Sequence record: OL631481.1
Reading direction: 5' to 3' (one strand)
From: Escherichia phage ECML-183-2
Length of the DNA: 64,000 bases
In this document: piece by piece, positions 2,136 to 29,588 of the stretch
Numbering within the stretch: the first letter of the stretch is position 1
How the letters are laid out: the number at the start of each line of letters is the position of its first letter
Notes under the pieces: generated by a model
The model's input: only the letters and a program-made list of their open reading frames with translations
What the model was told of the DNA's origin: nothing
Database searches by the model: none
Made by a program: the position numbers and the translations under genes

Positions 2136-2807
2136 CTATTTAATGTTCAATCTAGCACACAAGCGAGAAACAGTTTTAGCATCCCACTTACCACCACGTG
2201 CTGTTGCGATTTTCTTACTATTGAATTTTTCAGCAATAGTTTTGTAAGGTGTATTTAAATCTCTAAGGATCTCCAAGCGTTCACGAAATGTCTCTGCAAA
2301 AGCGTCTGCTTTAACAGAATTGTATTCCATTTTTCCTTTTCTACGTGCAGCGGCAGTTTTAGGATTAGCACTGCCTAACAAAACACCTTTGCTTTTTGCT
2401 ACAGCAAGACCCTTTTTAATACGATCAGCAATACCTCTAACTTCTTGTTCAGCCAGAACAGACAGAAGCTGTATAACCATTTTATCTGCGTCTGGCATGA
2501 TGGCTATCTTAACATCGATCATTTCTAGAAGAGTTGCTACGGAGGCGTTGTTACGACCCAAGCGGTCAACTTTAGCTACCAATAAAGTTGCTCCGGTAGC
2601 TTTACACATTTCAACCGCTTTAACCAGTTCCTTACGTTGCTTCCAATCGCCCTTACCAGAATAGTATTCAGAAAATTGACCAATAACTTCAGCATCAGGC
2701 ACAGAGTCTAAGAAGTAACGGATATCGTTCTCTTGGCTCTCCATACCATATTGTGCCTCACCTTTTTTCTGTTTAGAAAGACGACTGTAAACAACAAACT
2801 TTTTCAT
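2136..2807 (-). CDS. serine recombinase (resolvase/invertase family)
   Basis: N-terminal YSRLSKQ serine-nucleophile motif, DRLGRN motif, C-terminal HTH-like region; AGGAG RBS before ATG 2807. Confidence 0.7.
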   Translation of the reverse strand: MKKFVVYSRLSKQKKGEAQYGMESQENDIRYFLDSVPDAEVIGQFSEYYSGKGDWKQRKELVKAVEMCKATGATLLVAKVDRLGRNNASVATLLEMIDVKIAIMPDADKMVIQLLSVLAEQEVRGIADRIKKGLAVAKSKGVLLGSANPKTAAARRKGKMEYNSVKADAFAETFRERLEILRDLNTPYKTIAEKFNSKKIATARGGKWDAKTVSRLCARLNIK

Positions 2808-2836
2808 AACCACTCCTAAACCATTGCTGTATTCTC

Positions 2837-2877: not shown

Positions 2878-3090
2878 TTACAGCCATTCTACTTTTAAGC
2901 AGTATTCTTCGACATGTTGTTTACGCTTGTTTTTGTCTATGTAAGTGTATTCAACAAATGTCCCAAGATAATCCTTGTCCACATTGTGTTGGCTATTAAT
3001 TGGACATTTAGTACGACAAACCCGTTGCCACTGACGAAGAATTACGGCTTTGTTTTTAGGATCAAAGGGATGAGGGTAATGTGCCTTCAT
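2878..3090 (-). CDS. hypothetical protein (70 aa)
   Basis: ORF with GGAGG RBS. Confidence 0.4.
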   Translation of the reverse strand: MKAHYPHPFDPKNKAVILRQWQRVCRTKCPINSQHNVDKDYLGTFVEYTYIDKNKRKQHVEEYCLKVEWL

Positions 3091-3414
3091 TCACGCCTCC
3101 TGTTTTAGTCGAAAAATATTTTGAATAACGAGAGATGTATAGTTATCACTTAGTCCCATAAGTTCTACTTCCAAGTTTCGAATATCTTCCACCGTAGGAG
3201 GATATGTTGGTAAAAATGCTTGAGCATTGCCAGATCCAACCTCATTGCTGTAAGCAGTTGTAAAATTGTAAGATACAAAACATGAAACACCTTTTTGTCG
3301 GTACCCGATTAATCGACGAATACACCAGATAAGAGCCAAACCTATGAGAACACCTCCTAAACCAGCTAACAAGAAGGATAAGTTCATAATAGCTTCGTTA
3401 ACAACTGCTTGCAT
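3091..3414 (-). CDS. hypothetical membrane protein (107 aa)
   Basis: hydrophobic N-terminal helix; AAGGAGA RBS. Confidence 0.5.
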   Translation of the reverse strand: MQAVVNEAIMNLSFLLAGLGGVLIGLALIWCIRRLIGYRQKGVSCFVSYNFTTAYSNEVGSGNAQAFLPTYPPTVEDIRNLEVELMGLSDNYTSLVIQNIFRLKQEA

Positions 3415-3724: not shown

Positions 3725-3753
3725 GTTTCTCTCCTTTTGTGGTTAATCTTTAT

Positions 3754-12787: not shown

Positions 12788-13130
12788 GACAATCTCCTCT
12801 CATCGTTAGCCATCTTTCATGGCAATCATCAATCACCAACATCATACGATCAATCTTAAGGAATTACAATCGAATTATCATAGGGGATTCCTATCAATTA
12901 TCCCATATATACCGATTATTTTTGACACCCCATTCTTGTATAAAAAGTAACCCAAAATATCCACGGGGAGAGATTATTTCGACACACCCTGTTTCATGGC
13001 AATCATGGCAAGAATATCTAATAGAATCAATATCATATGGCAAAAATCATGGCGCATACGTAAGAAGTGCTTAACGCGAATTTTCGGGCCGTCAGGTCCA
13101 CGCAGCGACAATTCCCAAATATCATGCGAA

Positions 13131-13149
13131 TGAGAATAATTATCATTCG
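13131..13149. promoter_or_regulatory. Fur-box-like palindromic site
   Basis: GAGAATAATTATCATTCGT, 12 of 19 matches to GATAATGATAATCATTATC. Confidence 0.25.
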
Positions 13150-13310
13150 TATTCAATGACTTATGCAAGGCTCATGCCAACATAGCGACAAGGTGGGCCA
13201 CCTGATTATAAATCACACAAACACTTATTTATCAATGGTTTGGCAACTTCATCATATGACGGAACAATGTCAACTAATCCCGCTCATGACAGACGGACTA
13301 TTATTTATAT

Positions 13311-13329
13311 GAGAATGATTATTATTTAA
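13311..13329. promoter_or_regulatory. Fur-box-like palindromic site
   Basis: GAGAATGATTATTATTTAA. Confidence 0.25.
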
Positions 13330-14363
13330 ACGTTTATTAACATATAAACTAAAATAAATCAAGAATTTTCTGATTTTATTTACGTTTAAGAGAAGGTGCT
13401 CAACATCCTACCGGATCGCCGTTGGCAATCCTCGGATATTTACGCCCCCATGATTAAGGTTTATCTCTTTTATAGCTCAACATTCCCGCCTGTGGCGGTA
13501 ACATTTCGCCCCCAAAATTATTGACTTTTATTCTATTATGTGCATAGTGTGCAATGTATCGGAATGATGATAATCATCCTCCCATTGCCCCCATAATTAT
13601 TGCCATGCTAATTGTTTCATTACGTAATTATTACAATGACTATTGTTATTGCGCTAATGTTATGATCTTGGTAATTACATATAATGCTAATAATAAGCCA
13701 GCGCAATAAGTGTAAGCGTCATTACGCTTGCAATTATTGCAAGCTACGCAGTAACAAGAAATAACCATCACCGATGGTTATGATTGTTGGGGTGTAGTTG
13801 GCTTATTATTAGCTCGCTATGTGTCCGGCATAGCGTGCTAATGATGACTCTGTGAATGATTCGTTTTGTAATGATTTCATTCAGGCACTATTTTGCTAAT
13901 AGTTATTATTTTAATGGTTTCGTTTGTTATTGTTCGTTAGTTGGTTGTTTTGTCGTGTTATCGTTATTTTGCTTAGTATTTATCATGGTTTGATTGTTTG
14001 TCGTTATCAATCATCTTGCTATTATTCCTTTGATTATGATTAGTTTGCTTATTGTTTTATGTTGTTTGTTGGTTAGTTGTTGCGAACTATTATCAACATT
14101 ATAATTATGCGCTTATATTGCATAGATAATCATGGGTAGATGATAATGGTTATCATTGCACTAGAAAGGAGGTAAAAGGGTGTTTTTGATGGTTTGTTGT
14201 TGGTTGTTGATCGATTTTAACCGCTCTAAATAGCTCTCTAACAGCCTGTTGCCCTGGGATGTATGGTTATTCGTTTAATGGTCGATTAGCTCGATACCGT
14301 GATTTATTCAGTTTTGTTCTGTGTCGGTTTTTCATAGGCGAAAGCTATCAACATTGTTCGGGC

Positions 14364-22852: not shown

Positions 22853-23406
22853 AGACTATTTTCAAAGTTTTCTAGTGCGATCCTTTTTTCTTCCTCTGTC
22901 GGCTGATAATCAGGAAAAGCATCAACACACAACAACGGCGGGATCTCTTCGTACTCTTCCTCTTCCGTTGTCTCCTCGTCTTCCTCCTGGGCTATGGCTG
23001 CAATTTTGGCTAATTTTCTTTCAGCTTGAATCAATTTACCATCAAGTACGTTTTTTGCCATGTTGTAAGCGGTCCAGGTGATGCGCTTACTTTCCAGTGC
23101 TTGATCAAGCGCCGCTATCTTGCTGGGGTATTCATCCAGGACACGAAAAGCCGGATCAACTTTGTACAAAGGATTATCTTTCGCGCCGTCGCTCGCATCT
23201 TCCGCACTGGATAAATCAGCGTTACCATTTGCCAGCCAGCCAGGGCGCACATAACGCGCTTTTACGTTGCCGTTACTACGTGCTAATCTGTTACCTATTT
23301 GCTCACCACTATATCCCGTGGATTCATCGATAAGATGATCGGGAATGATGCGCGGATCATCTGCTTCATGTTTTACCCAAGACTGGATCACATATTCGCG
23401 GCCCAT
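22849..23406 (-). CDS. hypothetical protein with acidic C-terminal tail (185 aa)
   Basis: start moved to ATG (MGREY) after GGTGG RBS. Confidence 0.5.
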   Translation of the reverse strand: MGREYVIQSWVKHEADDPRIIPDHLIDESTGYSGEQIGNRLARSNGNVKARYVRPGWLANGNADLSSAEDASDGAKDNPLYKVDPAFRVLDEYPSKIAALDQALESKRITWTAYNMAKNVLDGKLIQAERKLAKIAAIAQEEDEETTEEEEYEEIPPLLCVDAFPDYQPTEEEKRIALENFENSL

Positions 23407-23407
23407 A

Positions 23408-23665
23408 TTAACCACCTTTTTTCAACAATTGGCATACTTTAAAAAGACTTGCTGAATCCTTGCAAGGGTAGAAAGATGTACGATAATCACGTACGCCAAC
23501 CTTGCGGATCTCGATGTTCTCGCATGTTGTTTGATCAAAGATATTTATTTCATCACGCCCCCTTATATAAACATAGTGGGGATGTATTAACGCATATTTT
23601 GCTAATCTGTAAAAAGCGTTATCTTTGAACGCGATCACGTGACCTTTTAATTTGATGTAAAACAT
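23408..23665 (-). CDS. hypothetical protein (85 aa)
   Basis: GGTGG RBS; downstream of cassette. Confidence 0.5.
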   Translation of the reverse strand: MFYIKLKGHVIAFKDNAFYRLAKYALIHPHYVYIRGRDEINIFDQTTCENIEIRKVGVRDYRTSFYPCKDSASLFKVCQLLKKGG

Positions 23666-23683
23666 TCTACCACCTTACAAATA

Positions 23684-23738
23684 GCGGGAACTATTCCCGC
23701 TTTATGTAACATATTAACAAATTATTCGTTAATGTCAA
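23684..23738 (-). promoter_or_regulatory. promoter plus leader-hairpin cassette
   Basis: TTGACA-N16-TAATAT, hairpin GCGGGAATAGTTCCCGC. Confidence 0.55.
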
Positions 23739-23741
23739 ACC

Positions 23742-24014
23742 TTAAAGCAAAAACGCTACATCTTGCGCTTTTAGTGTAGTATCAACCATTTTCGGGCTTT
23801 TATAATCAACAAAGCGCGCGGTTTTTTCAATAGCGAAACCGAGATAATCTTGTTTATTGAATTTACATTCTTTCTTAAATGTTTCCCGCGCCACGGTGAT
23901 CGCTGCGTCCAGGGATAAACGCCCGTCAATGTTGATATTTGCGAAAGATCCGCCACCGCTCATAGGTTTACCAGTGGTGCCAGCTACGATCATTGTTGCG
24001 CTATATGATGCCAT
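23742..24014 (-). CDS. hypothetical protein (90 aa)
   Basis: track ORF trimmed to ATG (MASYSA) downstream of hairpin. Confidence 0.5.
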   Translation of the reverse strand: MASYSATMIVAGTTGKPMSGGGSFANINIDGRLSLDAAITVARETFKKECKFNKQDYLGFAIEKTARFVDYKSPKMVDTTLKAQDVAFLL

Positions 24015-24038
24015 GATTATAATCTCTCTTCTGTTGTG

Positions 24039-24100
24039 AGCGGCTGGACCATTCCGCCGCCCTATGTGATACATCTTATCAGGTTGTTGTTTGTTGTCAA
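24039..24100 (-). promoter_or_regulatory. promoter plus leader-hairpin cassette
   Basis: TTGACA-N16-TAAGAT, gtatcACATAGGG, hairpin GGCGGCGGAATGGTCCAGCCGC. Confidence 0.6.
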
Positions 24101-24106
24101 TACTTT

Positions 24107-24304
24107 TTATTCTATTCCTGCAATTTGATTAACGCGCTTGCATTTTGTAGCGTGCTGGTCTTCTGTAATGACTCCCATTTCTAACAGGGAATCAATGAAA
24201 GATAAAACCGTTTCATGATCATCCTGGGGATGACTGAACTCAGTAAAACCGTTTACCACGACGCTGATTTGTCCTGCTTTCGCTACTATGTGCAATGTTG
24301 CCAT
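24107..24304 (-). CDS. hypothetical protein (65 aa)
   Basis: track ORF trimmed to ATG (MATLHIV) downstream of hairpin. Confidence 0.5.
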   Translation of the reverse strand: MATLHIVAKAGQISVVVNGFTEFSHPQDDHETVLSFIDSLLEMGVITEDQHATKCKRVNQIAGIE

Positions 24305-24325
24305 GATTTTAACTCCAAATAATGA

Positions 24326-24382
24326 GCGGCACCATTGCCGCCCTACGTGGTAAATATTATGCCGCCACCTGGCGAACGTCAA
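24326..24382 (-). promoter_or_regulatory. promoter plus leader-hairpin cassette (first of array)
   Basis: TTGACG-N17-TAATAT, ttaccACGTAGGG, hairpin GCGGCAATGGTGCCGC. Confidence 0.55.
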
Positions 24383-24491
24383 TCACTTTTTCAATCTTTT
24401 TTATTTTCTTTTTGCTTGCTATATATAAAAGAAAGGGCTATCATCTTTCTACCGCGCCAACCAGGGCGCACATCAAAGAAAGGGCGATACC

Positions 24492-24758
24492 ATGACAAAT
24501 ACTACATTACACCTTATGCACTCATTGGGCTGGCAAGGCGGCACGGTGCACCAGGTAGCAAGCGCAACGGGCTTAAAGGTTGAAACAGTTCTCAACCTGG
24601 GCGATCATAAGGTGGAAGAAATAGATCATTTTGATACGTTCGCAAATGGTTATCTATGGGCTTGCAGTGGCGGCGGGGAAAGCAAGATACCACCAGGGGC
24701 GCGGGGCGATATGTATTTTTGGTTAGGTGTCCTATCCTGGCAAGAAAACAAAAAATAA
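24492..24758 (+). CDS. hypothetical protein (88 aa), possible small DNA-binding regulator
   Basis: only plus-strand ORF at the head of the array; AAGGG RBS; candidate extended -10 (TGcTATATA) upstream. Confidence 0.4.
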   Translation: MTNTTLHLMHSLGWQGGTVHQVASATGLKVETVLNLGDHKVEEIDHFDTFANGYLWACSGGGESKIPPGARGDMYFWLGVLSWQENKK

Positions 24759-24760
24759 TC

Positions 24761-24789
24761 TTGACAAGCCCAGGGATCGGGCTTATACT
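24761..24789 (+). promoter_or_regulatory. sigma70-like promoter with no CDS downstream
   Basis: TTGACA-N17-TATACT on the plus strand. Confidence 0.5.
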
Positions 24790-24795
24790 GTTTTA

Positions 24796-24900
24796 CATAC
24801 AGAAGAGGAAGCGCCACCCCACGGCGTAAAGGCGGGGCTAACATACCAGGGGGGGCACTGGTTGGAAGGTTGATCGCCGGTAGGCTGGGCGCTATATATT
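24796..24900 (+). ncRNA. candidate small structured RNA (GC-rich island)
   Basis: begins after promoter 24761-24789; GC-rich with paired GCGCC / GGCGC ends, followed by TATATATTT; no ORF with RBS. Confidence 0.3.
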
Positions 24901-25023
24901 TGTAAAGAAATGTAAAGATAAAATAATCGCTTGCTTTCCTGGCTGGATCTGTTATTCTTATTACATGGCGAGGGGACACGGGAGCGCGAGACAAACACCG
25001 CCCCTGCGCGTCATTCTCTAAAT

Positions 25024-25042
25024 GAGAATGATTATCATTTAC
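25024..25042. promoter_or_regulatory. Fur-box-like palindromic site
   Basis: GAGAATGATTATCATTTAC, 15 of 19 matches to Fur consensus; flanked by inverted repeat TCATTCTC / GAGAATGA. Confidence 0.3.
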
Positions 25043-25081
25043 CTTATCAAATAAGAATCAATCTCATTTATAAACCTAAAT

Positions 25082-25100
25082 GCGAATCATTATCATTTGC
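25082..25100. promoter_or_regulatory. Fur-box-like palindromic site
   Basis: GCGAATCATTATCATTTGC. Confidence 0.25.
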
Positions 25101-25145
25101 ATTTCCATATGAGAACTCTTCTCATTCCCATCTGCATAAATTTTT

Positions 25146-25328
25146 GTAAACTTTAAATTTTGCTTTTGTACTTTCATTTTTGTAAAAGCAAAAAAACTTT
25201 AAATACTGTGGGCGCGCAAAATTTTTAAAATTTTCCTTGACTTTTGAGTTTTGTTTTGTATCTAACATTTTAAGATAATTTTCCTAAACTTTAAATTTTG
25301 GTTTTCAACTTTCACTTTTGTAAATTCT
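25146..25328. repeat. AT-rich direct repeats (two copies of about 43 bp plus shorter reiterations)
   Basis: aactttaaattttgcttttgtactttcatttttgtaaaa repeated as aactttaaattttggttttcaactttcacttttgtaaat; tttgagata reiterated at 25350-25390. Confidence 0.5.
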
Positions 25329-25566
25329 TAAAAAGTTTAAATAATTTGAGGGATTTTTGAGATAATAGGTAGTGGGAATTTGAGATAACCTTTAATCTTA
25401 TTAGTAGACCTTCAGGAACCCACTCAGATCGAATCCTAGTGATGCAAACTGAAAAAGACAAGGGTTTGTATAGGACAAAATAACAGGCTCTCTACGGTGC
25501 TGTAGGAGCCTTATTTCTGTGCTACAAAGTGACACCTTTGTTCTAAAAATGAAAAAAGTTAAAATA

Positions 25567-26109
25567 TCACAAATATCGTCTTTGCGGTATTTTGTCTGGG
25601 AAAAGTATTTCGATCAGTTTGTTATGATATTTACCTAAAAGATTTTGCCCTTTCCAGTTGACCGGATTTAGCACCCCTGGTTCATACATTCCCATTCCAA
25701 TACCGTAAACCTTATCGTAAGGACTTGCTTCAACAAACGTTTTGTATTGGTAAAGGTGTAAGTCTGCATACAAATCTGGATTCTGTACATATTTCAAGCA
25801 TAAACCTCGCATAACAATACGCTCACGGTTCTCTTCCCATACGTTGTTATCAAAATCCGACACTGCCCTACCCATACGTTTGTAATAAGCTTGAATCTTC
25901 TCATCTTTCCGTATCAAACTATGAGTCAGAATAGCCTGTGCAGTGTTGTGATCATTAAAAAGCAAAGCTTTACGCCACATTATGTATTGTTCGACACAAT
26001 TAAATGTCTGATTGTAACCTGGTTCGGTTTCTGTAAAGGGTGCAATATACCAATTACTAAAAACATCTTTATGTGAAAAGAAGAATACATAATCATCAGT
26101 TATTCGCAT
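25567..26109 (-). CDS. NADAR-domain protein (YbiA-like, DUF1768)
   Basis: YVFFFSHKDVFSNWYIAPF and EQYIMWRKALLF motifs typical of NADAR N-glycosidase domain. Confidence 0.6.
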   Translation of the reverse strand: MRITDDYVFFFSHKDVFSNWYIAPFTETEPGYNQTFNCVEQYIMWRKALLFNDHNTAQAILTHSLIRKDEKIQAYYKRMGRAVSDFDNNVWEENRERIVMRGLCLKYVQNPDLYADLHLYQYKTFVEASPYDKVYGIGMGMYEPGVLNPVNWKGQNLLGKYHNKLIEILFPDKIPQRRYL

Positions 26110-26284
26110 TTTTCATACTCTCCAAAATTTCACGTTGCCCTTGCTGATAGGCTTTCATCAGAACTACTTTAAGGTTTGTCTCCAAGAGGTCTTCATTGTA
26201 ATTATACCGCTCCACAACATATGTCAATTCATCATAAAGATGAAGAACGGGGTAGAATACAGGGTTATCTGCTAAACGTGCCAT
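26096..26284 (-). CDS. hypothetical protein (62 aa)
   Basis: start moved to ATG (MARLAD) after AAAGGAGA RBS. Confidence 0.4.
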   Translation of the reverse strand: MARLADNPVFYPVLHLYDELTYVVERYNYNEDLLETNLKVVLMKAYQQGQREILESMKNANN

Positions 26285-26297
26285 AGTTTCTCCTTTG

Positions 26298-26663
26298 TTA
26301 ATCCATCCACCAGTAGCCATAAACTGCGTCTGCGTCGATGAGTTTGTGTTTGTTGTTCCGCATGTAGTCTAAGATAAGTAGACGTTTATTGTATCTGGAG
26401 AGATTATGACCCTCTTTTCCGCCATAGTCAAAATATTTTGCAAGATCTTTACACTCAAACAAAATCAGTTCGGGAGTTTCTTCACACTGGTCTGTCTGGT
26501 ACACTTGACGAATGATCATGTATACATCGTCGTCTTCCGCTAAATGCTCTACTGGTCCACATCCAGCAGGAACAAATTCATAGTCCCATCTGATCAGATG
26601 TTTCTCTACTGCTTCAAAGAAGTCCATTCTTTCGTTGCGCATAATTTGAACGTCAACTAACAT
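26298..26663 (-). CDS. hypothetical protein (121 aa)
   Basis: AGGAGG RBS. Confidence 0.5.
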   Translation of the reverse strand: MLVDVQIMRNERMDFFEAVEKHLIRWDYEFVPAGCGPVEHLAEDDDVYMIIRQVYQTDQCEETPELILFECKDLAKYFDYGGKEGHNLSRYNKRLLILDYMRNNKHKLIDADAVYGYWWMD

Positions 26664-27841
26664 GTTTCCTCCTGTAATGTTCCACCATAAAGTTTATAAA
26701 TGTTTTGTATTGATGCCATGCAAGATAACTCCGCTGTCTCTGTGTAGCCATCTGGCATAGCATATTTGCTCACTGCTTCCGTGTGAAGGACACGCTTACA
26801 ACGCTTTTCTGCATCTTTGCATTGCTTCACAGTAGGGAAGTGCCACACTTGGCCCTGTTTCATAGTAAACACATTACGACTATTTTGTTCTTTGATACGG
26901 CGATTACTATTATTAGCAATACCAAACTTCAGTGCACAGATAATATCTTGCTCATCGTAAATATAATTAATGTAGGCTTGTTGTTGATTTTTGTTAGCAC
27001 ACTGCGGACAACCTTGTCCTATGTTTAAAAGGTTGTTTGCAGTTCCTTTTTGTTCCCCATGACTCTTACATACGTATTTAAACTTACCTATAGAAGATGG
27101 TTTGGTAATCCATCCTATCCAAACATACCCTTTCTTTTCTATTTTCTTTCTTACTTTATACGTAATCTGTTCCGCTGTATACCTATAAGATGCAGAGCAA
27201 CGGCAGGGTAAGTGTCCATATTTAAGATTGCTACGCGTCATATAAAACTTACCATCACATAGTCCAGCTTTAACATATTCATCATGAGAACAAACAGGAC
27301 ACTGAACCATCCATACTGGATCACACCCTTTACGTTCCCCCGTGTTGGTGAAAATAGTGCCTTCCTTAAACTTCCCTGTAGAAAAGAAATCTGCAATATG
27401 TTGATCGTCGGGTATTGTTTGTGACCTCCTTGTGTTCTCATACCTACATATAAGACAACCACTGCCATGTTTAAAACTATCAAAACTACATGTATTCCAT
27501 TCATGACCATACCTACAACGTAGCATCATTTTCGTACGCGCACCTTTAAACGGTTCTACGATACCTATGATGGTAATCCCCTTAGCTTCCGCTATTGGTT
27601 TACATTCAGTAAGGTATGTTTTTAAATCTTTAATTTGACCTGCACACATAGGACAACCACTACCACGTTTAAAACTGTTAATACTTGTAGTATCCCATTT
27701 ATAACCACAATGACACAACAAATCAAGTTTTGTATTAACCCCTTTCCATTCTCCCGTCCATCCTAAGATTTGGATTTGCTTACTCTCTGCTATTGGTTGA
27801 CACTCTTCTTTATATTGTTCCCATGATTTTGGTGCTGCCAT
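26657..27841 (-). CDS. zinc-finger repeat protein with C-terminal GIY-YIG-like (T5orf172-type) domain
   Basis: three repeats of C.{2,3}G..W.T.S..SFK.GSGCP.C treble-clef-like units; C-terminal YINYIY...KFGIAN...R...E pattern; AGAGGAG RBS. Confidence 0.5.
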   Translation of the reverse strand: MAAPKSWEQYKEECQPIAESKQIQILGWTGEWKGVNTKLDLLCHCGYKWDTTSINSFKRGSGCPMCAGQIKDLKTYLTECKPIAEAKGITIIGIVEPFKGARTKMMLRCRYGHEWNTCSFDSFKHGSGCLICRYENTRRSQTIPDDQHIADFFSTGKFKEGTIFTNTGERKGCDPVWMVQCPVCSHDEYVKAGLCDGKFYMTRSNLKYGHLPCRCSASYRYTAEQITYKVRKKIEKKGYVWIGWITKPSSIGKFKYVCKSHGEQKGTANNLLNIGQGCPQCANKNQQQAYINYIYDEQDIICALKFGIANNSNRRIKEQNSRNVFTMKQGQVWHFPTVKQCKDAEKRCKRVLHTEAVSKYAMPDGYTETAELSCMASIQNIYKLYGGTLQEETC

Positions 27842-27916
27842 CTGTTGCTCCTCTTATTAATCTGATATCCATACAAGAGAAAACCCGCCGAAGCGGGTTT
27901 AATAAATCTCAACTTA

Positions 27917-29056
27917 TTAGAACACGCTACCTAATGTGGTGGAACGTTGTGTTACAGGCTCCAGCACCACTCGCAGAGTGTTTCCTGGTGTAGTGCTCAT
28001 CACCAGGATCTTACCACCTTCAATCAGATCACAAGTTAGACCATCAGCAGTTGCACATAGATCAATATGTGGATCACCATCTTCATCCAGGATAACATAA
28101 CTGTTGGTTTCCATTGCTTCAACTTCATCATCTTTCAAGCTTTGCAGATAGATGTTCAGGGAACAAGCACCCGACAAAAACTTAGTAGGGGTGAAGTCGT
28201 GCCAGTTATTGATCCAATTCACCTTCAGAGTTTTGCCATTAGCTACGATAGAAGCCACATTCCATTTAGCATCATTGCCTAAAGAAATACCCATCATTTC
28301 AAGGCATTCTTTAAAAGTCATTTTTGGATAGAAATTCAATTCTTCTACAATGCCTTGAATAACATCGAAAGACAACTCTGTGCTAACATCCCATAAACGT
28401 TGGAAGTTATCTACGTGTTTTTTATTTACCAAGTTCTTATCCAAGTAATCTAACATAGTTTCACTAGACAGTTTATCGTAATTGAAACTGTAATAGATAC
28501 GACTAGGACGGTTTACAAAATATTCCGAGATATAGCCGCTATTTTTAGTGAGGATGTAAAGTTTATTTCCACTTCCTGTTCCATCCAACAAGGTCAACAG
28601 TGCTTCCTGATCTTCTTTCTTAGCGTACACTTTATCAAATTCGTCAAATAAAACAACAGCACGATCTGTAATTTTACTCATAAATTCTAAGAATCCAGCA
28701 TCTGTGTAAGGCTGTGTCACCAAAATGGTTGGAATACCTAAACCTTCTGTGGACATTAGGGACATGCTAATTAGTTTAGCCAACATCGTCTTACCACTGC
28801 CTTTTGTCCCTGTCAGTAACACCCCAGTATTTTTACCTTCTTTACTACGACGAGCAAATGTTTTAATAACATGTGCGGCGCGATCTTTAGTTTCCCCATA
28901 AAGAGTGTTCGGAAGAGAGAAACTTTCACCACGCACTAAAGAGTAGTTACCGTGCGGATCGCAGTTGACAACCCAAACTCCAGCAGGAAGTTTATTAGCT
29001 TCAACGCCATATTCCTTATTTACAACAGCTACATCTCCAAAAATAGTGTATTTCAT
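27917..29056 (-). CDS. AAA+ family ATPase
   Basis: Walker A GTKGSGKT and Walker B VVLFDEFD. Confidence 0.65.
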   Translation of the reverse strand: MKYTIFGDVAVVNKEYGVEANKLPAGVWVVNCDPHGNYSLVRGESFSLPNTLYGETKDRAAHVIKTFARRSKEGKNTGVLLTGTKGSGKTMLAKLISMSLMSTEGLGIPTILVTQPYTDAGFLEFMSKITDRAVVLFDEFDKVYAKKEDQEALLTLLDGTGSGNKLYILTKNSGYISEYFVNRPSRIYYSFNYDKLSSETMLDYLDKNLVNKKHVDNFQRLWDVSTELSFDVIQGIVEELNFYPKMTFKECLEMMGISLGNDAKWNVASIVANGKTLKVNWINNWHDFTPTKFLSGACSLNIYLQSLKDDEVEAMETNSYVILDEDGDPHIDLCATADGLTCDLIEGGKILVMSTTPGNTLRVVLEPVTQRSTTLGSVF

Positions 29057-29412
29057 TAGAACGTTTCTCCTTTTAAAATAATTACTGTAAACTTTGCAGT
29101 TTTTTCACTCTTAATATTCTTGACTAATAAGTATTCTCCTCCAAGGGCATCTTTGTATTGTTTAATAGCTACTATTTCATTTTTGCAAGTAGCTATAATC
29201 GAATAAAAAGGACGTTCCGTGTTATCTTCTTTTCCTGTATATGCCTCAACATCTTTGCACTCTTCTAGAACACCATTCCCAGGTGTATAGTAAAACTTGT
29301 TGCCTGTGATCACAACATCTTTACCAATATCCGTTTTAACTGCTACAAATTTTTGAGCGTAAGTGGTGAAGCTTACGGTAGCCAGCAATGTGGCTAAGAT
29401 TAATTTTTTCAT
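29056..29412 (-). CDS. secreted protein with signal peptide
   Basis: start at ATG after AGGAGGG RBS; MKKLILATLLATVSFTTYAQ signal-like N-terminus. Confidence 0.5.
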   Translation of the reverse strand: MKKLILATLLATVSFTTYAQKFVAVKTDIGKDVVITGNKFYYTPGNGVLEECKDVEAYTGKEDNTERPFYSIIATCKNEIVAIKQYKDALGGEYLLVKNIKSEKTAKFTVIILKGETF

Positions 29413-29423
29413 AAACTTCCCTC

Positions 29424-29588
29424 CTATTCCCACAACATACAAATCGCAGCGACAAACATATTAGCAATAGCCGCACCAAGAACTATAAACATCGCCAGTT
29501 CAGAACAATATTCACCAACCAGAGGGGATACTATTGCACAAAGTAGTCCCAATGTCAAACACAAATTGATGATGAAGTTTAAAATCAT
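29424..29588 (-). CDS. small membrane protein (54 aa)
   Basis: hand-translated MILNFIINLCLTLGLLCAIV...; AAGGAGAG RBS. Confidence 0.35.
   Translation of the reverse strand: MILNFIINLCLTLGLLCAIVSPLVGEYCSELAMFIVLGAAIANMFVAAICMLWE

Follow-up and report, generated by a model that had tools for sequence, protein, structure and literature searches.

The 64,000-nucleotide (nt) stretch of Escherichia phage ECML-183-2 analysed here (record OL631481.1, referred to as the window) carries at positions 25133-25352 an AT-rich block of repeats that appears to be a cis-acting DNA element rather than a gene, and most likely a protein-binding site. The block comprises three ancient units of about 70 bp whose spacing is fixed across two phage subfamilies while their sequence is not. 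Its sequence suggests a nucleoprotein array, and among the functions considered for such an array a transcription-activated replication origin is put first, though tentatively and at somewhat less than even confidence. The repeats are arranged as follows.

25139-25210, plus strand: repeat unit 1, with sub-motifs AACTTTAAAT, ACTTTCATTTTTGTAAA and AAAAAACTTTAAATA and its own hairpin, TTTTGCTTTT/AAAAGCAAAA.
25216-25276, plus strand: degenerate middle unit, carrying AAAATTTTTAAAATTTT, TTGACTTTTGAG and TTTAAGATAA.
25277-25348, plus strand: repeat unit 3, 82% identical to unit 1.
25356-25388, plus strand: a pair of exact TTTGAGATAA motifs at a distance of 23 bp; phage phiWec186 has them as TTTGAGATA(G/A).

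An initial annotation of this DNA had described two copies of about 43 bp. These are present (25146-25189 and 25284-25327, 37 of 44 positions identical) and extend to 72 nt at a spacing of 138 (25139-25210 and 25277-25348, 59/72 or 82% identical). The ungapped repeat score of 34 compares with 9.9 ± 1.2 (maximum 15) in 200 dinucleotide shuffles of 25100-25560. A 29-nt repeat family, D3, recurs at 25139, 25229 and 25277, and because of this family and of the comparison with relatives described below a degenerate middle unit is recognized, making three units of about 70 bp where two copies had been counted. The reiterated short motifs of the initial annotation were likewise located and are clustered in the block. 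AACTTTAAAT occurs exactly at 25149, 25195 and 25287 and with one mismatch at 25333, giving four sites within 190 bp, and has no other exact copy across the 64 kb. Its window-wide count at up to one mismatch is not enriched (15 versus 16.5 by chance), so the signal lies in the clustering. TTTGAGATAA has exact copies at 25356 and 25379 and a further one at 25269 with a single mismatch. Motifs of the ACTTT type share one orientation (7 versus 1). The block also holds 4 of the 10 hits, or 2 of the 5 distinct sites, found on both strands of the 64 kb for AAAATTTT tracts, which resemble UP elements or bending sequences. Two promoter interpretations of these elements were rejected. Neither AACTTTAAAT nor TTTGAGATAA is enriched elsewhere in the 64 kb as a general phage promoter motif would be, and the upstream regions of other genes in the window have ordinary sigma-70 promoters. 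Sigma-70-like hexamers inside the units (TTTACA-18-CAAAAT on the minus strand, TTGTAA-16-AATAAT on the plus strand) are not kept in alia, FKP3, PVP-SE1 or rV5.

Conservation sets the block apart from its surroundings. In an alignment of 2.2 kb from nine Phapecoctavirus genomes, each 92-95% identical to the window, the repeat block is the best-conserved part of the locus, with 6 of 223 columns variable (2.7%), compared to 17.5% in the NADAR gene, 18.6% in the next genes (the adjacent coding sequences), and about 16% in both the palindrome zone left of the block and the spacer right of it. The middle unit varies at 2 of 62 columns and unit 3 at 1 of 76. Variation as low as 2.7% indicates that nearly every base of the block is under constraint. 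In the more distant relative phiWec186, 73% identical across the locus, unit 1 is 86% and unit 3 is 85% identical to its ortholog in the window, whereas the paralogous units 1 and 3 inside one genome are 77.5% identical. Orthologous identity above paralogous identity indicates that the duplication is old and that the copies have been kept separately, with no concerted evolution. Unit-specific features, such as the hairpin of unit 1, are preserved between phages. These observations bear on a further explanation of the block, a non-functional AT-rich spacer with a relic duplication. Phage intergenic DNA is often AT-rich, and the short motifs alone do not exceed chance window-wide, but a spacer is contradicted by a block that is the most conserved segment of its locus, by unit-specific features kept between phages, and by a three-unit geometry common to two subfamilies; this explanation is highly improbable.

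The geometry was established from 15 loci of Stephanstirmvirinae and Vequintavirinae. The same layout is found in Justusliebigvirus (alia, KKP_3264, and FKP3) and an unclassified Stephanstirmvirinae Klebsiella phage, in Vequintavirinae (PVP-SE1, rV5_ev158, and phiTE), and in further contigs from the IMG/VR database. Each of the 15 has three units, the first lying 138-142 bp from the third, with the middle one dividing this distance into intervals of 63-78 bp (75+67, 67+75, 74+65, 63+78, and 67+74), and the other clades have three full units. Unit sequence is clade-specific: in Stephanstirmvirinae the units end in AAAAA(C/G)TTTAAATA, and the Vequintavirinae units have the ending GAAAAC..GATCGAG(T)AC. 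Fixed geometry together with free unit sequence points to a DNA-protein complex, unlike an RNA or a spacer. The repeats are thus conserved in relatives, near-invariant within the genus and with constant geometry across both subfamilies, which supports a functional, iteron-like protein-binding array. As far as the literature search showed, the three-unit geometry has not been described previously. A scan of IMG/VR with a degenerate AT-rich pattern gave chance matches only.

The very AT-rich and open reading frame (ORF)-free character ascribed to the region by the initial annotation also holds. GC content is 25% at 25100-25400. By nearest-neighbor energies no other duplex of 200-300 bp in the 64 kb is less stable than this one, which lies about 3.7 standard deviations from the mean, and no ORF of the block is conserved in relatives. 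A 48-aa minus-strand ORF annotated in one record as a small protein was dismissed because it is not conserved in relatives. RNA folding of the block shows no signal on either strand relative to shuffles (z +1.2 and +0.4). Borrowed host or plasmid DNA was rejected as a source, since searches of 5,426 E. coli genomes and of the plasmid database PLSDB gave no meaningful matches.

The window is assigned to the genus Phapecoctavirus of the subfamily Stephanstirmvirinae, with genomes of about 150 kb. In a database search the DNA region matched 143 phage records at 144 places in total, the closest being phAPEC8-like Escherichia phages at 93-98% identity. The AT-rich stretch of the initial annotation accounts for no more than the right-hand half of a larger locus, conserved, ORF-free and 1.1 kb long (24400-25566). 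To the right of the repeats the following features adjoin.

25486-25510, both strands: intrinsic terminator for both directions (stem of 9 bp, T-rich run on each strand).
25567-26109, minus strand: NADAR-domain protein (Pfam, E 1.6e-34), last gene of the operon running from 31501 to 25567.

This minus-strand operon terminates just right of the repeats, and upstream of the NADAR gene it encodes an HNH/CapR endonuclease and then an AAA ATPase (Pfam, PHROGs). Some records call the product of 25567-26109 (minus strand) a GTP cyclohydrolase II; NADAR is an ADP-ribose-processing family, and because Pfam gives a NADAR domain that product name is probably wrong. On the other side, the early small-gene array, also on the minus strand, begins near 24382, about 750 bp left of the block, and runs left under host-type promoters. 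The two flanking protein-coding units are co-directional according to the ORF list and annotated relatives, so the initial annotation erred in describing converging transcription units; the only convergence is between the 31501-25567 operon and small plus-strand units inside the locus, namely an 88-aa ORF and two predicted promoters, P1 and P2. Its suggestion of a bidirectional termination zone is borne out in part, by the separate hairpin at 25486-25510 and not by the repeats themselves. That hairpin folds at -20.2 kcal/mol (z -4.1) on the plus strand and -19.1 kcal/mol (z -4.3) on the minus strand, with tails UUAUUUCU and UGUUAUUUU, respectively. The phAPEC8 and ASO2A records list it as a terminator, and it varies at 2 of 87 columns among the nine genomes. 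Judging from these features, it is the predicted end of the minus-strand operon and of any plus-strand transcript crossing the repeats.

The left half of the locus contains a series of elements facing the block.

24492-24758, plus strand: 88-aa ORF, opposite to both flanking arrays (PHROG 19316, E 2e-59).
24761-24789, plus strand: P1, a predicted sigma-70-type promoter, TTGACA-17-TATACT (11/12), directed toward the repeats.
24797-24895, plus strand: module 1, a GC-rich element of about 100 nt, GAAGAGGAAGCGCCACCCCACGGCGTAAAGGCGGGGCTAAC...GATCGCCGG, downstream of P1.
24899-24958, plus strand: two tandem copies of TGTAAAGA followed by P2 (TTGCTT-16-TATTCT), a weak promoter-like element read from the sequence.
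24967-25017, plus strand: module 2, GC-rich around an invariant GAGACAAACACC (24988-24999), elsewhere written GAGACAANCACC.
25021-25126, no strand: four 19-bp palindromes at 29-bp spacing (25021, 25050, 25079, and 25108; repeat families D1/I1).

The 88-aa ORF is annotated in tuntematon, ASO2A, and ESCO13, and its N-terminal motif LGWQGGTVHQVASATGL, common to phiTE_079, looks like a helix-turn-helix. P1 is the top match in a promoter consensus scan of 23500-26500, and the element is also found in alia, phiWec186, FKP3, and phiTE. P2 lies below the scan threshold in the window, so its identification as a promoter is an inference; a P2-like element is kept in position in all clades, with equivalents in PVP-SE1, rV5_ev158, phiTE, and FKP3. 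Module 1 is almost invariant across 23 distinct versions from Stephanstirmvirinae and Vequintavirinae, and its consensus fold includes one compensatory pair (A-U in 9, G-C in 6) and a hairpin loop of variable length. It is probably a structured RNA made from P1. A known RNA family was rejected, as no Rfam family matches 23000-27000 at E<=1, and module 1 is a candidate for a new structured RNA. In one IMG/VR locus (L022) module 1 lies directly upstream of a ribosome-binding site and ATG, in the manner of a leader. The 12-mer of module 2 is invariant in 17 loci except for one free position, and its flanks vary; the single-sequence fold of 24964-25045 has a z of -3.5, and no consensus RNA structure was found for the module. 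In rV5_ev158 the unit of promoter, module, and palindrome is present twice. GC skew is +0.17 to +0.25 over 24500-25000 against a negative background, making the transcript strand G-rich.

Existing annotations of this stretch in relatives disagree with one another. The phAPEC8 record has a 114-aa minus-strand ORF (24650-24994) across the promoter and RNA-like modules that is probably spurious, and the WPEC-series and Ec-G1 records call tiny coding sequences inside the non-coding locus. In practical terms, several GenBank records carry spurious coding sequences over this locus. The "PHIRE promoters" of the phAPEC8 annotation correspond to a conserved hairpin, GGGCGGCAATGGTGCCGCTC, located in the window at 24324-24343 (minus strand) and with equivalents in locus L002 at 330-349, 1184-1203, 2200-2219, 3089-3108, and 3728-3747. 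In the host-type early promoters this hairpin directly follows the -10 box, which puts it at the 5' end of every early transcript; it is more likely an RNA 5' stem-loop, acting in stability or processing, than a promoter. Elsewhere in the window of this virulent phage, a gene resembling those of serine recombinases and DNA invertases is present at 2136-2813 (minus strand; PHROG 125).

The repeat block is therefore situated between two predicted rightward host-type promoters upstream, with G-rich transcripts, and a bidirectional terminator downstream. Several well-known replication origins have a comparable arrangement. The primary origin of phage T7 consists of the promoters phi1.1A/B followed by an AT-rich stretch; oriF and oriG of phage T4 combine a promoter with a downstream unwinding element and are primed from an R-loop; and the ColE1 origin is primed by RNA II. 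The locus shares with these systems tandem predicted promoters directed at the DNA that melts most easily in the region, a G-rich transcript strand, and a gp4-type primase-helicase. It differs in the use of host sigma-70-type promoters, in an AT-rich block about 170 nt past the P2 start with palindromes in between, and in the three long repeat units, which T7 and T4 oriF/oriG do not have. In iteron origins, such as those of phage lambda, T4 oriE, and the plasmids pSC101, RK2, P1, and R6K, iterons of 17-22 bp occur in runs of four to seven. The block resembles these in having same-orientation direct repeats next to or inside AT-rich DNA, and in a constant layout whose repeat sequence shifts from lineage to lineage, a pattern that co-evolution with a binding protein would produce; here, in contrast, there are three units of about 70 bp, no adjacent Rep- or O-type gene, and no DnaA or IHF sites. 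In its anatomy the locus seems closest to transcription-activated origins, with an added iteron-like array.

A scheme for such an origin can be outlined in which protein binding, promoter activity, and all steps of replication initiation are inferred. The three units, with their same-orientation A-runs and CTTTAAATA-type motifs, would form a fixed scaffold of about 140 bp occupied by a sequence-specific DNA-binding protein. Host RNA polymerase would fire from P1 and P2, and the bound array and the transcript would together aid opening of the AT-rich DNA. The phage T7-gp4-like primase-helicase and a family-A polymerase would then take over. The window encodes such a primase-helicase, as well as a PIF1/RecD-type helicase.

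The sequence features expected of an iteron or R-loop origin are present in part. Several direct repeats share one orientation (three units, with ACTTT-type motifs at the 7:1 bias given above), predicted promoters, identified by consensus match, are directed into the AT-rich region (P1 at 11/12, and a P2-like element kept in position in all clades), and the GC skew indicates a G-rich transcript upstream of the region that would melt. For an AT-rich unwinding element the picture is mixed: the block is the least stable DNA in the window and in most relatives' loci, but the homologous block of phiTE is not AT-rich. A number of observations weigh against an origin. No recognizable initiator gene of the Rep/O family was found next to the block by Pfam or PHROGs, the neighbors being the NADAR, HNH/CapR endonuclease, and AAA ATPase genes and the 88-aa ORF without an assigned function. 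Across 24300-25600 there is no DnaA box (TTWTNCACA) and no match to the IHF consensus (WATCAANNNNTTR), and GATC is not enriched in the locus. The units are about three times the length of classical 17-22-bp iterons. Block GC is 17-30% in Stephanstirmvirinae and 32-33% in PVP-SE1 and rV5, but it reaches 53% in phiTE, above that of its surroundings, which argues that what is conserved in the units themselves is not easy melting. P2 matches the consensus weakly, and RNA made from it may already terminate at the first palindrome, 100 bp short of the block. Finally, a second ORF-free zone of low stability at 12.8-14.4 kb is another origin candidate. The iteron-like or origin function proposed by the initial annotation is thus upheld as regards a conserved array and weakened by the missing DnaA and IHF sites, the lack of an adjacent initiator, and the phiTE block that is not AT-rich.

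The origin of rV5-like phages has not been mapped. Skew analysis of rV5 failed, since the skew merely followed the switches in the direction of transcription, and a box labeled "non-coding" was left without explanation on the rV5 map (PMC3606486). Literature searches for the origin of rV5-like phages gave nothing specific. It is because of the anatomy of the locus, the unmapped origin of the group, and this silence of the literature that a replication origin is placed first.

The main rival is a protein-binding array with a regulatory or architectural role unrelated to replication, which is somewhat unlikely. Such an array could insulate the early-gene region from the upstream operon, could be the binding platform of a phage regulator that governs the early-to-middle switch, or could hold host nucleoid proteins on AT-rich DNA that is curved. 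Conservation and fixed spacing support it equally with an origin, and the position of the block between the terminator and the early region, its tracts resembling UP elements or bending sequences, and the presence in the same locus of a conserved small helix-turn-helix-like ORF and tandem TGTAAAGA sites are all in keeping with it. Against it stand the roughly 750 bp that separate the block from the nearest early-array promoter, with plus-strand units between, and the poor conservation of the units' sigma-70-like hexamers, which are not kept in Justusliebigvirus or Vequintavirinae. Binding of the H-NS or Fis type would leave unexplained the near-invariance of almost every base.

The plus-strand promoters and the terminator could also delimit a non-coding RNA, running from P2, or from a promoter overlapping the Fur-like palindromes described below (and then iron-regulated), to the bidirectional terminator. 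Its repeated AAAAACUUUAAAUA units would soak up an RNase or an RNA-binding protein in the manner of a sponge or decoy. The plus strand of the terminator likewise carries a U-run, P1, P2, and a TTTATA-18-TATCAT match overlapping palindrome 3 all face the block, and the motifs are strand-asymmetric. Set against this, the block has no fold signal, an unstructured RNA needs no conserved unit spacing, unit sequence turns over completely between the subfamilies, and a terminator-like hairpin precedes the block in the P2 transcript. Moreover, the known RNA decoy of the group, the pseudo-ToxI of phiTE, maps at 106.7 kb and not at the homologous locus near 39.5 kb. A non-coding RNA is accordingly unlikely. 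A pseudo-ToxI or type III antitoxin decoy in particular was rejected: the phiTE escape locus (106,714-106,772) is 67 kb from the homologous locus, and such decoys need pseudoknot repeats of 34-45 nt, whereas the window units are about 70 nt long and 82% alike with no fold signal.

The four palindromes left of the repeats, the last of which falls within the AT-rich block of the initial annotation, resemble operators of the E. coli iron regulator Fur. The best match in the window to the Fur 19-mer (GATAATGATAATCATTATC) is 16/19 at 25024, in the first palindrome, and the 7-1-7 form (TGATAATnATTATCA) is matched 13/14 at 25023. At two or fewer mismatches the 7-1-7 motif has 6 hits versus 0.70 expected in shuffles, five of the six within two ORF-free zones, and the consensus of the phage palindromes themselves, AATGAGAATNATTCTCATT, has 6 hits versus 0.10 expected. 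These matches are clustered and far above chance, and the phage consensus differs from the E. coli operator in having G where Fur has T (TGAGAAT). Further Fur-like palindromes are present in the window at 13129-13147, 13308-13326, and 14141-14155. The homologous locus of all rV5-like phages examined contains Fur-like palindromes, and the same palindromes are found in the T5-like phage HASG4 (L011) at 1490-1680 and 1998-2025, in the non-coding, repeat-rich end of the terminal repeat, where they adjoin DnaA boxes and a perfect LexA-type box, TACTGTATAAATATACAGTA. A preprint describes the T5 palindromes without mention of Fur (bioRxiv 10.1101/866236), and no description of a Fur or iron link in these phages was found in the literature searched. 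As far as that search showed, Fur-like palindromes common to rV5-like and T5-like phages have not been described before; from their sequence they may represent a so far unrecognized use of host Fur by virulent coliphages. A separate near-palindrome, TTAGCACGCTAA, occurs both in the non-coding locus of the rV5-like phage rV5_ev158 (L009, about 2631-2645) and in the non-coding part of the terminal repeat of HASG4 (L011, about 1921-1935).

The likeness to T5 raises the possibility that the block is a packaging recognition site, a genome terminus, or an injection-stop-type signal resembling the repeat-rich non-coding end of the terminal repeat in T5. Regions containing pac or cos typically hold arrays of palindromes and direct repeats. 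Repeat Region 3 of T5, the injection-stop region with which the terminal repeat ends on its inner side, is likewise ORF-free over about 1 kb and has AATGAGAATGATTCTCATT-type palindromes alongside direct-repeat arrays, and in HASG4 the shared palindromes are in just this repeat-rich end, which has been discussed as an injection stop signal (bioRxiv 10.1101/866236). However, the direct repeats of T5, about eight copies of GTCGGATTTGCACA, have no sequence relation to the window units, so that the resemblance in sequence is confined to the palindromes; DnaA boxes and a LexA-like box occur in the T5-like region but not in the window locus; and the genomic setting is another one, Repeat Region 3 sitting at a terminal-repeat boundary. 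No database record starts, ends, or splits at the locus among its 144 matching places in 143 records, phiTE is reported to be circularly permuted, and there is no terminase among the seven neighboring genes scanned (24107-29442, a range that leaves out the early small genes further left).

Record ends cluster instead in the zone at 12.8-14.4 kb (ESCO13, BI-EHEC, phi92, VEcB, PD06, and others), which matches 170 places in 139 records, although this evidence is indirect, as record starts are partly copied conventions. The zone is ORF-free and T/G-rich, has Fur-like palindromes, and ranks second in the window for low duplex stability; it may be a packaging or terminus region, or another origin. 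Because records break there, packaging at the repeat block is disfavored and must be considered very unlikely, and the packaging or terminus function raised by the initial annotation is not supported for the repeats. The WPEC1 record, examined for terminal repeats, is not collinear with the window and was uninformative.

A broader form of the origin hypothesis takes the whole locus at 24.4-25.6 kb as an rV5-like origin of an undescribed type, built from host-polymerase transcripts, structured modules, Fur palindromes, and the three-unit scaffold. In this extended form the hypothesis is a long shot, improbable on present evidence. If it were true, the Fur sites would either tie initiation to the iron status of the host or serve to titrate Fur; the phage itself has ribonucleotide reductases that depend on iron. 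The palindromes of the T5 terminal repeat would then point to shared use of Fur in unrelated virulent coliphages. Should the palindromes bind Fur, the development of rV5-like and of T5-like phages alike would be linked to the iron status of the host. The rV5-like phages (Vequintavirinae and Stephanstirmvirinae) are widely used as broad-host-range therapeutic and biocontrol phages, and their cis-acting sites are unmapped; for this group the locus provides a precise and testable origin candidate with clearly defined units.

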